Positions 2,511-24,305 of a stretch of 24,313 nucleotides of DNA are shown here, one piece after another. The translations under genes and the position numbers were made by a program. Source of the stretch: an uncultured Pseudomonadota bacterium (GTDB lineage: Bacteria; BMS3Abin14). Position 1 is the stretch's first letter. Every line of letters starts with the position of its first letter. The stretch lies in contig CAYVSA010000013.1 of assembly GCA_964454175.1 (NCBI GenBank), forward strand, positions 15,254 to 39,566, given 5' to 3'. The notes under the pieces were generated by a model. The model searched no databases and was not told the DNA's origin. It was given only the letters and a program-made list of their open reading frames with translations.

Positions 2511-3863
2511 ATGTCAGATGATAGACAGTATTTTCAGCCAGATCTCGAAACCATGCCGGTTGACAAACTTAAAGCCCTCCAGTTGGAACGGCTGCAGGAG
2601 GTTGTCGGCAGAGTTTATAACGACAACCCGCACTTTCAGAAAGTCTACAAAGAAGCTGGTTTCGAGCCCGGCGACTTAAAGTCCCTTGATGATCTCACCA
2701 AGGTCCCATTTATGGAGAAGAGCACCGTAAGGGACGGCTACCCTCTCAAGATCGTTACCGGAGAGATCGGCAGCATGAGACAGATGCACAGCACCTCGGG
2801 TACCACCGGCAAGCCGGTCCTGATCTTTGCTTCGGAGCAGGATATCGCACACTGGGCCGATCGCAACGCCCGCGAACTCTGGATGGTGGGACTGAGGCCT
2901 GGCGACATATTCCTGAATTCCTTCGGCTACGGTCTGCCAACGGGTGGATTCGGATTCCACTACGGCGCACAGAAGATGGGCGCCTGTCCGATCCCTCTTT
3001 CCGGTGGACAGTCCGACAGAATGGTCGACCTGCTCGTTGATCTTCCGATCAAGGCGTTCTGCGCGACCCCGTCCTTTGCCCTTTACGTGGGTCAGAAAGC
3101 GCAGGAAAAGGGATTTGATCTCGCCAAGGATTCCACCTGCGAGATCAGCCTCCACGGTGCAGAGCCGTGGCCATGGTCCACAAGGGAGAGGATCCAGGAA
3201 CTGTTCGGCGTCACGGCCTTCGACGAATTCGGTATGACCGAATTCCTCGGACCAGGCATGACCTGCGAGTGCCCGGCAAGGACCGCGGACTCGCCCATCC
3301 GGATGCACATCTGGTCTGATCACCTCCTGGCCGAATGCATCAACCCCGATACCGGTGAGCCGGTGGGGGACGGTGAGGACGGCGAGATGGTCTGGACAAA
3401 TCTGGTCAACACGGGAACGCCCCTGATCCGCTACCGAAGCCGTGACCTGGCGGCCATGACGTGGGCGCCCTGTGCGTGCGGCAGGACCCACCCGAGGATG
3501 GCGGCCATCAAGGGCCGGTCCGACGATGCCGTTTCCATAAGCGGGCTTATAGTTTTCCCGAGTCAGGTTGAAGAAGCGCTTACCCGTTTCCCGGAGATGG
3601 GCGCCAACTTCCGGATGATAATTGAGACTGACAAGAGGGGCATGGACCACTTCACCCTGAGGATCGAGCTCAAGGACAAGGCTCTACTGGACGACAAGGG
3701 CCTGGTGGACAACCTCAAGCAGAAGATGAAGGAAGCTGTAAAGAGCGTGACCGATGTCAACCCCAAGGTGGTTGATCTCATAGGTCCTGATGAGCTGCCT
3801 CGTGCCACGGCAGGCGAGGGCAAGACCGCCAGCGCCAGGGTTGAGGATCGGAGGAAAAAGTAA
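2511..3863 (+). CDS. paaK: Phenylacetate-CoA ligase family (aryl/acyl-CoA ligase)
   Basis: STSGTTGKP P-loop, FGYGLPTGGFGFHYGA, GAEPW, FGMTE, PLIRYRSRDL, CACGRTHPR and GRSDD motifs; GGAGG RBS. Exact substrate is not determinable. Confidence 0.88.
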   Translation: MSDDRQYFQPDLETMPVDKLKALQLERLQEVVGRVYNDNPHFQKVYKEAGFEPGDLKSLDDLTKVPFMEKSTVRDGYPLKIVTGEIGSMRQMHSTSGTTGKPVLIFASEQDIAHWADRNARELWMVGLRPGDIFLNSFGYGLPTGGFGFHYGAQKMGACPIPLSGGQSDRMVDLLVDLPIKAFCATPSFALYVGQKAQEKGFDLAKDSTCEISLHGAEPWPWSTRERIQELFGVTAFDEFGMTEFLGPGMTCECPARTADSPIRMHIWSDHLLAECINPDTGEPVGDGEDGEMVWTNLVNTGTPLIRYRSRDLAAMTWAPCACGRTHPRMAAIKGRSDDAVSISGLIVFPSQVEEALTRFPEMGANFRMIIETDKRGMDHFTLRIELKDKALLDDKGLVDNLKQKMKEAVKSVTDVNPKVVDLIGPDELPRATAGEGKTASARVEDRRKK

Positions 3864-3968
3864 CGAATCAATGGTTTGTTATGTAGGTCATTGATTCGAG
3901 AGGAAAGCGAAAACCACGTTTTTCTCTTTCCGAGGAGTAAAAAGCCGATCACGGACTTTTTACGACCC
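3864..3968. repeat. Structured repeat family A, copy 1 (105 bp, three hairpins)
   Basis: Hairpin cgaatcaatg-N15-cattgattcg, then agaggaaagcgaaaaccacgtttttctctttccgaggagtaaaaagccgatcacggactttttacgaccc, which is identical in copy 2. Confidence 0.92.
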
Positions 3969-3994
3969 GGTTAACGCGCTCATCAGGAGCGCCC

Positions 3995-4099
3995 CGAATC
4001 CATAGCATGAGATGATAGGTATGGATTCGAGAGGAAAGCGAAAACCACGTTTTTCTCTTTCCGAGGAGTAAAAAGCCGATCACGGACTTTTTACGACCC
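3995..4099. repeat. Structured repeat family A, copy 2 (105 bp, 131-bp period)
   Basis: Hairpin cgaatccata-N15-tatggattcg, then the same 70-nt tail as copy 1; preceded by the hairpin gcgctc-atcag-gagcgc. Confidence 0.92.
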
Positions 4100-4147
4100 A
4101 TACTATTAACAAACAAACATACTAGCCAAACGGAAGGAGGTGTGAGT

Positions 4148-4513
4148 ATGGAGCGAAAACGCATGAGGGCTCGAATAACGGCTGAAGACCTGCGTCTATC
4201 AGAGCATGTTGAGCCCAAAGAGGTAACGGAAACCTGGAAGAAGATCATTGACGCTACATGGGATATGACAATTGTTGCCGTTGCCTACAACGACATGCGG
4301 GTCCCGCTGTCGCGGGTTCCCGAGACCCTCTCGGTATTGGACAAGCAGGTAGCCAATGTTGCCGAGGAGAGCACCCTGGATATCATCGAAGAGGAGATCA
4401 AGACCGGAATACGGCATTTCTCCGATATCGTTGAGAAGGCTCAGGCGAGCAAATCGGAGATGGAAAAGATTCTCCGCGCCACCTGGAACCGCAGGGTCAA
4501 GATCAAGACGTAA
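4148..4513 (+). CDS. Hypothetical protein (~121 aa, charged, probably helical)
   Basis: Strong RBS AAGGAGGT at 4134-4141 before ATG 4148; fills the gap co-directionally before the CoA-transferase genes. No family recognised. Confidence 0.75.
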   Translation: MERKRMRARITAEDLRLSEHVEPKEVTETWKKIIDATWDMTIVAVAYNDMRVPLSRVPETLSVLDKQVANVAEESTLDIIEEEIKTGIRHFSDIVEKAQASKSEMEKILRATWNRRVKIKT

Positions 4514-7974: not shown

Positions 7975-8772
7975 ATGGTTAAGAGGAAAAAAAGCGACTA
8001 CGTCATTCACTCTGTTGATCACGCCCTGGATGTTTTGGAGGCGTTTCGCGCTAACGAGCCGGAGCTTGGCGTCACCCAGCTTTCCAAAATCCTTAAACTC
8101 CATAAAAATAACGTTTTCCGTATTCTGGCGACCCTGGAGAGCAGGGGGTACATCGAGCAGAACCCCAGGACGGAGAACTACAGACTCGGTCTGAAAGCTT
8201 TCGAGGCAGGGCAGGCGTACCTGAGGCATGTCAGCCTTCTTTCTGTGGCCAATCCGGAGATGGTTCAGCTTTCGGACAGCCTGAAGGAGAATTCCTACCT
8301 GGCAGTCCTGAGGGGGGATTACGTATTTTACCTCGATGAAATAATTGCTGACCAGACTATCCAGGTTGTTTCCAGGCTCGGCACGAGGGTGTCTCCCCAC
8401 TGTACCGCAACGGGAAAGGTCTTCCTGGCTTTTTCGGCAGTGGATCAGGCCGAGTTGATCCTTCAGCACCTGAAACTGGAAAAGATGACTCCTAACACGA
8501 TCATTGACAAGGAGCGCCTGAATAAGATCCTCCAAAAAGTCAGGAGCAGTGGTTGCGCGGTTGATATGGAAGAGTGGACCATGGGGCTCAGGTGCGTCGC
8601 TGCGCCAATACTGGATTATTACGGAAAGATACAGGGGACCCTTTCAGTGAGCGGTCCTGCGGAAAGGATGTCCGAAAAGCGAATAAAAGAGGAGATCGTA
8701 CCCTCTGTAGTAAAATGCGCGACCGAGGCATCCAGAAAAATGGGGTTTGAGACAGGTCGGTCCGTGGAATAG
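7975..8772 (+). CDS. IclR family transcriptional regulator (paralog 1)
   Basis: N-terminal wHTH SVDHALDVLE..LHKNNVFRILATL..YRLG; effector domain HCTATGKVFLA and EE..GLRCVAAPI. Confidence 0.93.
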   Translation: MVKRKKSDYVIHSVDHALDVLEAFRANEPELGVTQLSKILKLHKNNVFRILATLESRGYIEQNPRTENYRLGLKAFEAGQAYLRHVSLLSVANPEMVQLSDSLKENSYLAVLRGDYVFYLDEIIADQTIQVVSRLGTRVSPHCTATGKVFLAFSAVDQAELILQHLKLEKMTPNTIIDKERLNKILQKVRSSGCAVDMEEWTMGLRCVAAPILDYYGKIQGTLSVSGPAERMSEKRIKEEIVPSVVKCATEASRKMGFETGRSVE

Positions 8773-8893: not shown

Positions 8894-9042
8894 TCCCTGT
8901 CATTCTGACGAGAAGTCGCGGTTGTTCTTGTAGAGCTCTACGGCCGTTGGCTTTTGCTTGTTCCAGCCGTCTTCGTCAGGCACGATCCTGCAGGCGGCCG
9001 TGGGTCAGGGTGCGTTCAGGAGGAATTACCCGGAGGTTGCAG

Positions 9043-9849
9043 ATGACTCAAACCAGAAGAAAGAAATCGGATTACATAATTCAGTCGGTTGACCACGCCC
9101 TGGATGTCCTTGAAGCGTTTCACGGTGATGAGGATGAGTTGGGAATAACAGAACTCAGCCGCCGCCTGAAGCTCCACAAGAACAACATTTTCAGGATCCT
9201 TGCAACCCTGACCAACAGGGGCTACATGGAACAAAACAGGACCAATGACAATTACCGGCTGGGACTCAAGACTCTTGAGCTTGGTCAGACCTACATTCGC
9301 CATGCCGGTCTTCTAAAGGTAGCCCGACCGATAATGGAGAAACTGGGCGAACAGATCAACGAAAATATTTATATAGGCATTTTAAAGGGCAAGTTCGCAT
9401 TCTACCTGGATGTTGTGGAGTCCGATCACACGGTTCGTGTCCTTTCCAGGGTCGGATGCAGAGTTCCAACCTACTGTTCAGCTATCGGCAAGGCGCAGCT
9501 TGCATATGAGTCTATGGAGAACATCCTTGAGGTCCTCAACAAAAAGGAACTTAAAAGCTTCACTCCCAACACGATCACTGACAGGGACCGGATTCTCGAT
9601 CACCTTGAACTGATCAAGGAGCTTGGCTACGCCGTTGATGATGAGGAGTGGGATGAGGGAGTGCGGTGCGTGGGGGCCCCGGTGTGTGATTACACGAGGA
9701 AGGTTGTTGCAGCCCTTTCCATATCAGCCCCGTCGGTGAGGCTCAGCACAAACAAGATCAAAAAGGAATATGTTCCGCTGCTTAAGAAGGCAAGTGCAGA
9801 GATCTCGAAGCAGTTGGGCTTCAAGGCTCTTGAAGACCTGGATAGCTGA
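9043..9849 (+). CDS. IclR family transcriptional regulator (paralog 2)
   Basis: Same domain motifs (YCSAIGKAQLA, DDEE..GVRCVGAPV). Start moved to ATG 9043 on the basis of the GGAGG RBS and alignment with paralog 1. Confidence 0.93.
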   Translation: MTQTRRKKSDYIIQSVDHALDVLEAFHGDEDELGITELSRRLKLHKNNIFRILATLTNRGYMEQNRTNDNYRLGLKTLELGQTYIRHAGLLKVARPIMEKLGEQINENIYIGILKGKFAFYLDVVESDHTVRVLSRVGCRVPTYCSAIGKAQLAYESMENILEVLNKKELKSFTPNTITDRDRILDHLELIKELGYAVDDEEWDEGVRCVGAPVCDYTRKVVAALSISAPSVRLSTNKIKKEYVPLLKKASAEISKQLGFKALEDLDS

Positions 9850-13045: not shown

Positions 13046-13073
13046 CCGGGAATTGGGGTTATGCGGCGGTGAA

Positions 13074-13174
13074 AACGGGCAACCTTCTGCGTTCTCAGTC
13101 GTCAGAAATCCTCGACGTATGTCCCATATACGACTCCGGTTTCTTCCTCCCTGCGGCCTTGAATCTCACCCGTT
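13074..13174. repeat. Structured repeat family B, copy 1 (101-bp core)
   Basis: Ungapped alignment to 19261-19361 with about 20 mismatches; terminal aacggg/cccgtt inverted repeat and central cgtatg-tccca-tatacg hairpin. Confidence 0.9.
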
Positions 13175-13600
13175 TTCCCTCACCTTTATTGCAAATGAAA
13201 CTCTATAGTACACTTTGAACCTCGGACCCGTTATTTTCGTGTGGATCGCGCCACGTAACTGACACCTTCTCGAACCTCTGTTACAGGCCTTCGGATATAA
13301 ATAAATATCCCGGTTTTAAGATCAAGGGTCGAAACAGACAACAGGATCACTCTAAACTAACTAAACCCTTTTTGTGAGCCTTGTTTTAATCTGAGGGCCT
13401 TTTTCCCATCGTTCATCCTCTATTTTTCCCGATAAATTATTTCTTTATTACATGGAATCTGGAACCTGGAACATGGAACTGCAACCGCCAGGCTGCCACC
13501 CGTTTCCCCTCGCCTTTTTAGCAAATGAAACTCTATAGTACACGTTGAACCTTGGACGTTGGGCGTTGGGCGTTGGACATTGGATGTTGGACCCGATAAT
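13167..13600 (+). repeat. Direct repeat pair (13167-13235 and 13497-13600, offset 330 bp)
   Basis: Both copies read cacccgttt.ccctc.ccttt.t.gcaaatgaaactctatagtacac.ttgaacct.ggac; the second carries five additional heptamers. Confidence 0.88.
13451..13479. repeat. Heptamer tandem repeat (catggaa/cctggaa)
   Basis: catggaa tctggaa cctggaa catggaa. Confidence 0.8.
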
Positions 13601-15274: not shown

Positions 15275-15291
15275 TTGAAAGGCGAGCTGGT

Positions 15292-15355
15292 TTCAAGTTC
15301 CAGGTTCCAGATTGAAATAATAATAAAGATATACATGGAACATGGAACATGGAAC
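15292..15355. repeat. Inverted pair of heptamer arrays (ttccagg... / catggaa x3)
   Basis: ttcaagttccaggttccaga, then an AT-rich spacer, then catggaacatggaacatggaac. Confidence 0.75.
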
Positions 15356-17372: not shown

Positions 17373-17404
17373 TGTTTGCCGTAGAGCCGGTTCAGAGTCC
17401 CGAT

Positions 17405-17460
17405 AAGAGGCCATCTACTTTGTTGTCGGTCCTCGGTAATCCTCGACGTATGTGCCATAT
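17405..17460. repeat. Structured repeat family B, truncated left half
   Basis: ggccatctac..gtt..gtc..atcctcgacgtatgtgccatat aligns with the first half of both full copies. Confidence 0.7.
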
Positions 17461-17462
17461 GA

Positions 17463-17541
17463 CCCCTCCCTTGATGGGAGGGGATAAAGGGGAGGGTGAA
17501 ATATTACCACCCCCTCCTGACCTCCCCCATCAAGGGGGAGG
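17463..17541. repeat. Long G/C-run palindromic REP-like element
   Basis: ccttgatggg/cccatcaagg outer arms and ggagggtg/caccccctcc imperfect inner arms. Confidence 0.75.
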
Positions 17542-17583
17542 TATTCAACCTTCAACTTTCAACATTGAACAAGGCTTAAACCG

Positions 17584-19249: not shown

Positions 19250-19372
19250 GGGCGTCCAGTAACGGGCTATCTACGGCGTTCTCAGTCGTAGCCAGTCCTC
19301 GAAGTATGTCCCATATACGTCTCCGGCTGGCTTCTCCCTGCGGCCTTGTAGCTGGCCCGTTCTTGAACGCCC
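19250..19372. repeat. Structured repeat family B, copy 2 (core 19261-19361)
   Basis: Homologous to 13074-13174; outer stem extended by gggcgt/acgccc. Confidence 0.9.
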
Positions 19373-19812: not shown

Positions 19813-19862
19813 TGTCCAACGTCCGATGACCAACGTTAAACATTGAACATTGAACGTTAAAC
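19807..19862. repeat. Heptamer tandem repeat (eight degenerate units)
   Basis: gtctaat gtccaac gtccgat gaccaac gttaaac attgaac attgaac gttaaac. Confidence 0.8.
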
Positions 19863-19882
19863 GCGATACACGATCACAGTCA

Positions 19883-24217: not shown

Positions 24218-24305
24218 TTCAGTCCAAGGTCCAAGGTCAACAATCGATTTGGATATTGGATTATTGGTAATTGTTCATAGGCCATGGGTCCTGGGACTTT
24301 GGACC
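24218..24305. repeat. Heptamer arrays in inverted arrangement
   Basis: gtccaag gtccaag gtcaa ... ttggata ttggatt ... gtcctgggactttggac. Confidence 0.65.

Follow-up and report, generated by a model that had tools for sequence, protein, structure and literature searches.

Our analysis of a 24,313-nt stretch of DNA from an uncultured Pseudomonadota bacterium (lineage BMS3Abin14 in GTDB; GenBank assembly GCA_964454175.1, contig CAYVSA010000013.1, positions 15,254 to 39,566 of the forward strand) indicates with high confidence that the structured tandem repeats at positions 3864-4099 are members of a MITE family (MITE, miniature inverted-repeat transposable element), i.e. non-coding DNA transposons of about 152 bp with inverted ends, a 6-bp target duplication and empty sites. 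The whole stretch is referred to as the window in the following, and its coordinates are used throughout. The assignment is carried by the small size of the element, which contains no transposase gene and is too short to hold one, by its inverted ends and flanking direct repeats, by the many intergenic copies, and by the occurrence of filled and empty sites.

A repeat search of the window returned a direct repeat of 105 nt (3864-3968 and 3995-4099, at a spacing of 131 nt) and a 43-nt repeat family with members at 1-43, 3930-3972 and 4061-4103. A first-pass annotation of the sequence had described the 105-nt repeats as two units with an identical 70-nt tail and a compensatorily changed 5' hairpin, and this description was confirmed: the units are identical at 93 of 105 positions, all 12 mismatches are confined to 3870-3892, and the tails (3899-3968 and 4030-4099) show no difference. 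The 5' hairpin, designated H2 below, has a 10-bp stem and a 15-nt loop in both units (CGAATCAATG/CATTGATTCG in unit 1 and CGAATCCATA/TATGGATTCG in unit 2). The two H2 stems differ by compensatory changes, and RNA folding extends that of unit 1 from 10 to 15 bp once G-U pairs are counted. The tail hairpins of the units have the stems GGAAAGCGAAAAC/GTTTTTCTCTTTCC and GTAAAAAGCCG/CGGACTTTTTAC. When folded as RNA, the region 3855-4110 reached -98.5 kcal/mol on the + strand (z = -8.4, with none of 200 shuffles as good) and -92.9 kcal/mol on the - strand (z = -7.6).

A genome-wide copy search, as had been proposed in the first-pass annotation, yielded both further copies and, in related genomes, empty orthologous sites. 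In the window's own genome, referred to as G000 (2.17 Mb in 135 contigs, completeness 98.5%), an iterated nhmmer search with a threshold of E < 0.001 returned 40 hits, 17 of which were near full length for the 100-nt model. Two further conserved hairpins were found upstream by extending the flanks. Full copies, 66 in number and taken from 16 genomes as well as several public metagenome-assembled genomes (MAGs), were then aligned and gave a consensus unit of 155 model positions, corresponding to about 152 bp between the duplications, with the ends 5'-GATGACTTCGYAAAAAGTCATC ... GGACTTTTTRCGACCCTATC-3'. The full family element (GATGAC...CCCTATC) comprises five hairpins, H0 to H4, and the window units are fragments of it. 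The repeat recognized earlier therefore stands, while the unit length of 105 bp does not, as the full element is longer and the supposed spacer between the units holds H1 of unit 2. The consensus parts are as follows.

H0: GTTGATGACTTCGCAAAAAGTCATCAAC
H1: GCGCCC-loop-GGGCGC
H2: AAATCAATGACTTGC-loop-GCAAGTCATTGATTT
H3: GGAAAGYGAAAA-loop-TTTTCRCTTTCC
H4: GYAAAAAGCC-loop-GGACTTTTTRC
Tail: GACCCTATC

All five hairpins are supported by covariation. Within the 66-copy alignment, 94.1% of the 3687 cells in the five helices are paired, as compared to 37-49% after sliding the 3' partners by 1-3 columns, and changes on both sides were observed in 20 of 56 pairs, a number that none of 500 column shuffles reached (11.9 +/- 1.8); since the copies are related, these covariation counts overstate the number of independent events. 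Compensatory changes include the second pair of H4 (U-A in 36 copies, C-G in 28) and the base of H2 (A-U in 50, G-C in 13), and one position of H3 shows four pair types. On the + strand, mispairs within H2 and H3 are G-T far more often than A-C, both in this first set (about 85 versus 12) and in 119 metagenome copies that form an independent set (105 versus 19); no such skew occurs in H4 (44 versus 36) or in H0. A few positions common to subfamilies give much of this skew, which we regard as only suggestive.

The earlier observation that structure and length are kept while the sequence varies was correct for the window and holds across the whole family. The H2 apex is present in 52 distinct forms among the 66 copies, and the remaining variation consists of stem variants at the level of subfamilies; the CCATA/TATGG stem variant in H2 of unit 2, for example, is common to copies in other genomes (loci L180 and L102, and G015:C37). 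Deleted, truncated and tandem forms are common, as are partial forms that consist of H3 and H4 or of H4 alone, the latter being about 30-45 nt long. Five partial hits terminate at a contig end or at a run of N, indicating that the repeat breaks assemblies.

Inverted ends, target duplications and distribution

The interior of the element is formed by the local hairpins H1 to H3, and H0 and H4 constitute its self-folding ends. The two ends form an imperfect terminal inverted repeat of about 22 nt (GATGACTTCGCAAAAAGTCATC versus the reverse complement of the right end, GATAGGGTCGYAAAAAGTCCAT) and have in common the pattern GAT....TCGYAAAAAGTC(C)AT. Comparing the left 23 nt with the reverse complement of the right 23 nt in 119 copies gave 16.3 matches on average, and shuffled sequences gave 12.1 with a maximum of 16.

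Evidence for a target duplication came from the hexamers on either side of the element. The 6 nt preceding GATGAC are identical to the 6 nt following CTATC in 10 of 60 solo copies, as compared to 1.2 upon random re-pairing (maximum of 5 in 1000 rounds). In the independent metagenome set, perfect hexamers were found in 31 of 94 copies (2.7 expected, maximum 9), and 57 of 94 matched at five or more of the six positions (16.1 expected, maximum 29). Duplicate flanks were left out of these counts, as were copies that adjoin a further copy (6 of 66 and 19 of 113, respectively). Matching hexamers are in excess at those inner positions where the AAnnTT-like target varies.

Filled and empty versions of the same site were identified among related genomes. 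A copy on contig C5 of genome G015 is absent at the same site in the congeners G006 and G012, with flanks that are 91-96% identical; in the empty site CATTGAA is directly followed by CATTGAC, and the filled site reads CATTGAA-GATTGATGAC...CCATATCAA-CATTGAC. A further site is filled in G004 (contig C26) and empty in G011, which has 22 nt there. In one of three further searches for an additional pair, no orthologous flank was found in the relatives, and other insertions are common to G015 and G012. At one orthologous site shared by the latter two genomes (L232 in G015:C37 and L248 in G012:C292), the copies carry different variants of H2 and H3, each of them internally paired, and H0, H1 and H4 are nearly identical. 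This pattern suggests a replacement between subfamilies, an exchange between copies or a repeated insertion at the same target, rather than slow drift.

The copies are predominantly intergenic. In G000, 38 of the 40 hits lie outside long open reading frames (ORFs) as predicted by a crude ORF caller, and the copies are located 3-350 nt from gene ends. Their orientation relative to genes is unbiased, and copies lie either way: between co-directional genes, the ratio of sense to antisense was 10:5 in G000, 5:10 in the relatives (9 of 30 being undetermined) and 27:19 among metagenome loci (59 of 122 undetermined and 4 inside an ORF call).

The phylum, a small uncultured one, is represented here by a single family (16 genomes in 9 genera); apart from G000, 14 of its 15 genomes were matched by a 160-nt unit, which had no match in 25 genomes sampled from other phyla. 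The element is accordingly present in 15 of the 16 phylum genomes and in all nine genera, with few to several hundred copies per genome; first-look candidate counts ranged from 1 to 271. The sole phylum genome without a match is G001, a single-contig assembly, and its congener G009 has 6 matches. Occurrences of the 12-nt end motif TCGYAAAAAGTC amounted to 318 in G004 and 78 in G011, as compared to 2 and 3 for the reversed control, and to 32 in G000. Upon scanning 185,579 species genomes, the exact 32-nt pattern was recovered from at least 113 stretches, and among the 80 matches listed all were located in six MAGs. A pattern scan of metagenome contigs gave at least 120 stretches, and among viral contigs none carried either exact end pattern. 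Copies from different genera are up to 94.8% identical, a similarity that is inflated by the choice of loci, which were those that best matched a single query from G000; the intergenic DNA of congeners, unlike the cross-genus copies of the element, barely aligns.

Search for a transposase and alternative readings

As a MITE, the element would depend for its movement on a transposase acting in trans, which would bind the terminal repeats and make a staggered cut of 6 bp in its target, preferably at AAnnTT. Duplications of 5-6 bp are typical of only few insertion sequence (IS) families, and we know of no IS family with a duplication of this size whose ends resemble those of the element, so that no family is named here. 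The search for a parent transposon covered six Pfam transposase families in assemblies that are mostly fragmented. An IS1-type transposase was found in none of the 16 phylum genomes, and at three transposase loci (L379, L382 and L389) copies or clusters of copies lie alongside the gene, not as transposon ends. At two metagenome loci, left ends are inverted relative to each other at a distance of 1.6-1.7 kb; these loci were considered as candidate parents and rejected, as they contain an FHA-domain gene between ordinary copies and no transposase.

Several observations weigh against the assignment as a MITE. The search yielded no autonomous parent: pairs of inverted ends at a distance of 0.7-3 kb were found neither in G000 nor in the listed part of the matches in G004 and G011, none of 120 metagenome loci had inverted ends that bracket a transposase, and no bracketing ends were present at 49 transposase loci of the phylum (Y1, IS256, ISL3, DDE_Tnp_1 and rve). 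The inverted repeat formed by the ends is imperfect as well as short, and either end is also self-folding. At least two mismatches separate the flanking hexamers in about 40% of the solo copies, and even where filled and empty site can be compared most cleanly, one base sets the two hexamers apart (AAGATT versus AACATT), so that a plain insertion without duplication fits this pair equally. Finally, H1 to H3 are better conserved than would be needed for the interior of an inert MITE, which hints at a constraint beyond the simple MITE model.

With regard to this last point, it might be speculated that the H1-H3 interior is a selected structured nucleic acid, i.e. an RNA borne by the element or a single-stranded DNA (ssDNA) form that is needed for movement. 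We consider this unlikely. It would explain why five hairpins are kept by compensatory changes in nine genera, why G-T mispairs prevail on one strand of H2 and H3, and why copies from different genera can be about 95% identical though the intergenic DNA of congeners no longer aligns.

The first-pass annotation had also raised a guide-type RNA with a variable cassette. In its general form, this reading takes the family as a multicopy structured noncoding RNA (ncRNA), possibly with a variable 'guide' hairpin, the DNA copies being genes for a trans- or cis-acting RNA. The compensatory changes that preserve all five helices would fit such an RNA, as would the G-U excess on the + strand of H2 and H3, the slightly better fold of the + strand, the conservation of the interior between genera and the highly variable H2 apex with its 52 variants in 66 copies. 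However, Rfam 15 gave no match at gathering score for the window and four loci with full copies (matches to the copies stayed below threshold and at chance level, the best one on a full copy reaching 28 bits with a cut-off of 60), and the window copies contain neither promoter-like nor terminator-like sites. The variation that had been taken for a cassette resolves into the H2 apex and the stems of subfamilies, and neither of the two loops in the window is matched elsewhere in its own genome over 12 nt or more. Copies occur in both orientations and without bias relative to neighbouring genes, those beside the window copies being metabolic; no nuclease or other effector gene lies near them, and no neighbour recurs among the 40 loci of G000. 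Moreover, it is mobile DNA, and not RNA genes, that is characterized by terminal repeats, target duplications and empty sites. We therefore regard an ncRNA family as very improbable, and the guide version of it was abandoned.

The chance is smaller still that copies of the MITE have been co-opted as cis-acting RNA elements such as stabilizers, processing sites or attenuators, a reading that is compatible with the MITE assignment and would add a function for the host. The location of copies 3-350 nt from gene ends, the very stable hairpins and the sense orientation of the window pair within a conserved gene row are in line with a role of this kind, and known MITEs as well as BOX elements undergo transcription and are able to alter expression, as stated in sections of a review (PMC3184786). 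Co-option is disfavoured by the lack of an orientation bias, by the absence of a U-tract terminator, and by the finding that, among the relatives sharing this gene order, most have no insert at the window site (see below), so that the insert is dispensable there.

The repeats had initially been classified as 'REP/BIME- or MITE-like', and the second half of this proposal is borne out by the inverted ends, the 6-bp duplications and the empty sites. The first half, according to which the repeats would be repetitive extragenic palindromes or bacterial interspersed mosaic elements (REP/BIME) that are handled as ssDNA by a domesticated Y1 transposase (REP-associated tyrosine transposase, RAYT) without target duplication, is the least probable of all readings. 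It can draw on the intergenic, palindromic modules in mosaic and tandem arrangement with their common H4-only and H3+H4 pieces, on the G-T over A-C skew of the metagenome set (105 versus 19), which fits one-strand folding, on the presence of Y1_Tnp genes in 10 of the 16 phylum genomes, and on the one filled/empty pair that exactly fits a plain insertion without duplication; but it leaves unexplained the variable 6-bp direct repeats, which occur far above chance, it demands units of 20-40 nt and not of about 152 bp with five hairpins, and it is at odds with the distribution of Y1 genes, as no copy lies within about 1.5 kb at any of the 12 Y1 loci of the phylum, G000 has 40 hits and only a sub-threshold Y1 match (19.8 bits), and G001 carries Y1 genes and no copy. 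Likewise, the RAYT or nuclease genes for which the first-pass annotation had proposed to look were not found next to the repeats, as G000 has no qualifying Y1 gene and no nuclease lies beside copies.

The window locus and other repeats

The features of the window that belong to the element, together with the two genes adjacent to the pair, are listed by coordinates and strand.

1-43, + strand: 3' end of a third copy with H4 at 8-34 and the tail GACCCATAC; 5' part lost in a scaffold gap (C13:15254-15290, model positions 64-100)
2511-3863, + strand: gene for a PaaK-like AMP-forming ligase (AMP-binding, AMP-binding_C_2), whose TAA at 3861-3863 abuts unit 1
3864-3968, + strand: unit 1, a truncated copy (repeat search, profile alignment)
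3864-3898, + strand: H2 of unit 1, CGAATCAATG / 15-nt loop / CATTGATTCG
3902-3931, + strand: H3 of unit 1, GGAAAGCGAAAA...TTTTCTCTTTCC
3937-3968, + strand: H4 of unit 1 (3937-3963) and GACCC, the right terminal inverted repeat of the element
3969-3975, + strand: inter-unit junction GGTTAAC
3976-3992, + strand: H1 of unit 2, GCGCTC-ATCAGG-AGCGC
3995-4029, + strand: H2 of unit 2, CGAATCCATA / 15-nt loop / TATGGATTCG
4033-4062, + strand: H3 of unit 2
4068-4105, + strand: H4 of unit 2 (4068-4094) and the tail GACCCATACTA, the right end of the element
4142-4513, + strand: conserved ORF of 123 aa without a Pfam family, followed by CoA-transferase genes

The window pair is a dimer that lacks H0 and whose first unit is truncated at the 5' end. 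Unit 1 corresponds to model positions 46-152 of 155 and is devoid of H0 and H1; it begins at the base right after the TAA stop of the upstream PaaK-like gene. Unit 2 covers model positions 22-150 of 155, and its H1 is contained in the 26-nt inter-unit stretch 3969-3994, where GGTTAAC alone occupies the place of the tail and the whole H0 that would be expected in a full tandem pair. Tandem junctions without H0, like that of the window and with a period of 131-132 nt, also occur on contig C39 of G000 and at locus L086 in a public MAG. The third copy, which had been noted before as cut by the edge of the window, is indeed a copy of the element (1-43); the cut is due to a run of N, a scaffold gap in the contig, directly before the window start.

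The gene row of M24 peptidase, PaaK-like ligase, 123-aa ORF and CoA-transferase is conserved in the phylum, and orthologues of the ligase were identified in all 15 relatives at 81-89% identity. In most relatives, the distance from the ligase to the 123-aa ORF is only 53-101 nt, as compared to 278 nt in G000, where the pair lies in sense orientation. Apart from the two units in G000, this spacer is filled by one full copy each in G012 and G003, with different flanks, and in G004 it holds what is left of the element's right end; it is empty, with a length of 53-60 nt, in G015 (a congener of G012), G008, G011, G013, G007 and G002. Since most relatives have no insert in the spacer, the insert is dispensable for this gene row. 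The sequence after the ligase stop in genus g7 (CGATTCAAC...) aligns with the start of unit 1 and matches the 5' arm of H2 at 7 of 9 positions, and the 5' arm and loop of H2 in unit 1 resemble the post-stop sequence of the sister genus. Judging from this one alignment, an old copy may have sat at the ligase stop in the common ancestor. A GC-rich stretch at the PaaK locus of G009 was considered as a sister family and rejected, being single-copy in the five genomes searched.

The window pair would add seven stable hairpins to the presumed transcript of the gene row, with no terminator-like U-tract among them. Its local effect is probably neutral or limited to a mild change in RNA stability or processing. 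The genes of the window are metabolic or regulatory. Among the latter are two adjacent paralogous IclR-family regulators (7975-8772 and 8947-9849), which give rise to direct repeats at a spacing of 1074 nt with stretches of 72-77% identity and which are located within a neighbourhood of CoA-ligase/CoA-transferase and 2-oxoacid oxidoreductase genes.

The window contains further repeats. Tandem arrays with a period of 7 nt are present at 13453-13479, 13542-13592, 15289-15310, 15333-15355, 17543-17571, 19832-19863 and 24222-24238. Across G000, there are 276 heptamer arrays of at least three copies, 211 of them intergenic, with units such as GGACGTT, CCCAGGT, CCAGGTT and GTTGAAC; periods of 5, 6, 8 and 9 nt account for only 10-48 arrays each. 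The arrays recall the heptamer STRR (short tandemly repeated repetitive) sequences of cyanobacteria. They are not enriched beside the MITE, and the idea that the element inserts into them, which two of the site comparisons had suggested, was rejected, as an array within 60 nt was present at only 2 of 33 element loci, the baseline being 17%.

A second dispersed repeat of about 100 nt occupies 13071-13174, 17402-17460 and 19258-19361, just downstream of an IorB-like gene, a 174-aa ORF and a methylmalonyl-CoA mutase gene, respectively. It has inverted ends (GAAAACGGG ... CCCGTTTTC) and 9 BLAST hits in G000 with 78-93% identity, and it is probably another MITE-like family. A direct repeat of 61 nt (13167-13227 and 13497-13557, 90% identical, 330 nt apart) lies upstream of a carboxyltransferase gene and has one weaker copy in G000. 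A 22-nt inverted repeat rich in CCCTCC/GGGAGG (17462-17542), 82% complementary and with a spacer of 37 nt, is located in the gap that separates the 174-aa ORF from the methylmalonyl-CoA mutase gene. Finally, a sub-threshold Rfam match to the cspA thermoregulator was obtained near a copy of the element in G003 (L038:818-1155, - strand; score of 66.3 bits with a gathering cut-off of 78, E = 3e-15). This match is probably a real cspA 5' untranslated region that is unrelated to the repeat.

Relation to known elements and significance

With regard to size class, the family is comparable to the Correia elements of Neisseria, ERIC of Enterobacteriaceae, RUP of pneumococcus and bcr1 of the Bacillus cereus group. 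The table of the review that we draw on gives lengths of about 104-157 bp for Correia, about 127 bp for ERIC and 107 bp for RUP, and a passage of the same text describes bcr1 as having two independent stem-loops (PMC3184786). Similarly to all four, the element has no transposase gene, possesses terminal inverted repeats and flanking direct repeats, occurs in many intergenic copies, folds strongly in prediction, and is variably present or absent between related genomes. Correia and ERIC-type elements are flanked by TA, whereas the duplication found here is 6 bp long with a preference for AAnnTT; no kinship in sequence to any of the four was seen, with no dedicated comparison made. In contrast to the one long end-to-end hairpin of the Correia, ERIC and RUP type, the present element forms five separate local hairpins.

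In its modular, mosaic organization with internal modules that vary in number, the family is reminiscent of the BOX elements of Streptococcus pneumoniae, which are likewise non-autonomous and highly structured when transcribed according to the relevant section of the review (PMC3184786). The mosaic consists of full units, tandems without H0 at a period of 131-132 nt, and pieces of H4 alone or of H3 and H4. Unlike BOX, the family resides in another host lineage and has a different sequence, its modules are the hairpins of one 152-bp unit and not boxA, boxB and boxC, and target duplications are shown here statistically. The intergenic and often clustered palindromes and the apparent importance of one-strand folding, as judged by the G-T excess, are shared with REP/BIME elements and their RAYT. 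REPs are, however, only 20-40 bp long in the passage of the paper that describes them (PMC3733652), and the present family is distinguished by its size of about 152 bp, its target duplications and terminal inverted repeats, and the absence of copies beside the 12 Y1 genes.

Catalogued MITEs are mostly genus-specific, with a share of 97.4% stated in the summary figures of a census of 183,232 genomes (PMC11602168). The spread over nine genera observed here differs from this, noting that GTDB may draw genera more narrowly in uncultured lineages than was the case in the census. The host lineage may be the candidate phylum MBNT15, for which few genes of mobile elements are reported in at least one genome; the searched passages of the paper on it contain no mention of such repeats (PMC9386147). 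Those MITE features that are given in the pertinent part of the review (PMC3184786) were all found but for a recognized parent IS, and such a parent is missing for many MITEs too. A paper on the element was not found in our literature search, which cannot detect descriptions at the sequence level. We conclude that the repeats constitute a real, well-defined and new MITE family, of which the multi-hairpin core and the distribution over nine genera are unusual.

A MITE family as such opens no new class of system. It does explain many of the contig breaks in the assemblies of this lineage, where several copies lie at contig ends or runs of N, and it provides annotators of an uncultured lineage with a defined repeat model that can be masked or mapped, and population studies with markers based on insertion polymorphism. 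If the H1-H3 interior were indeed selected, the family would represent, within an uncultured phylum, a transposon that relies on a folded module of RNA or ssDNA or that delivers one.

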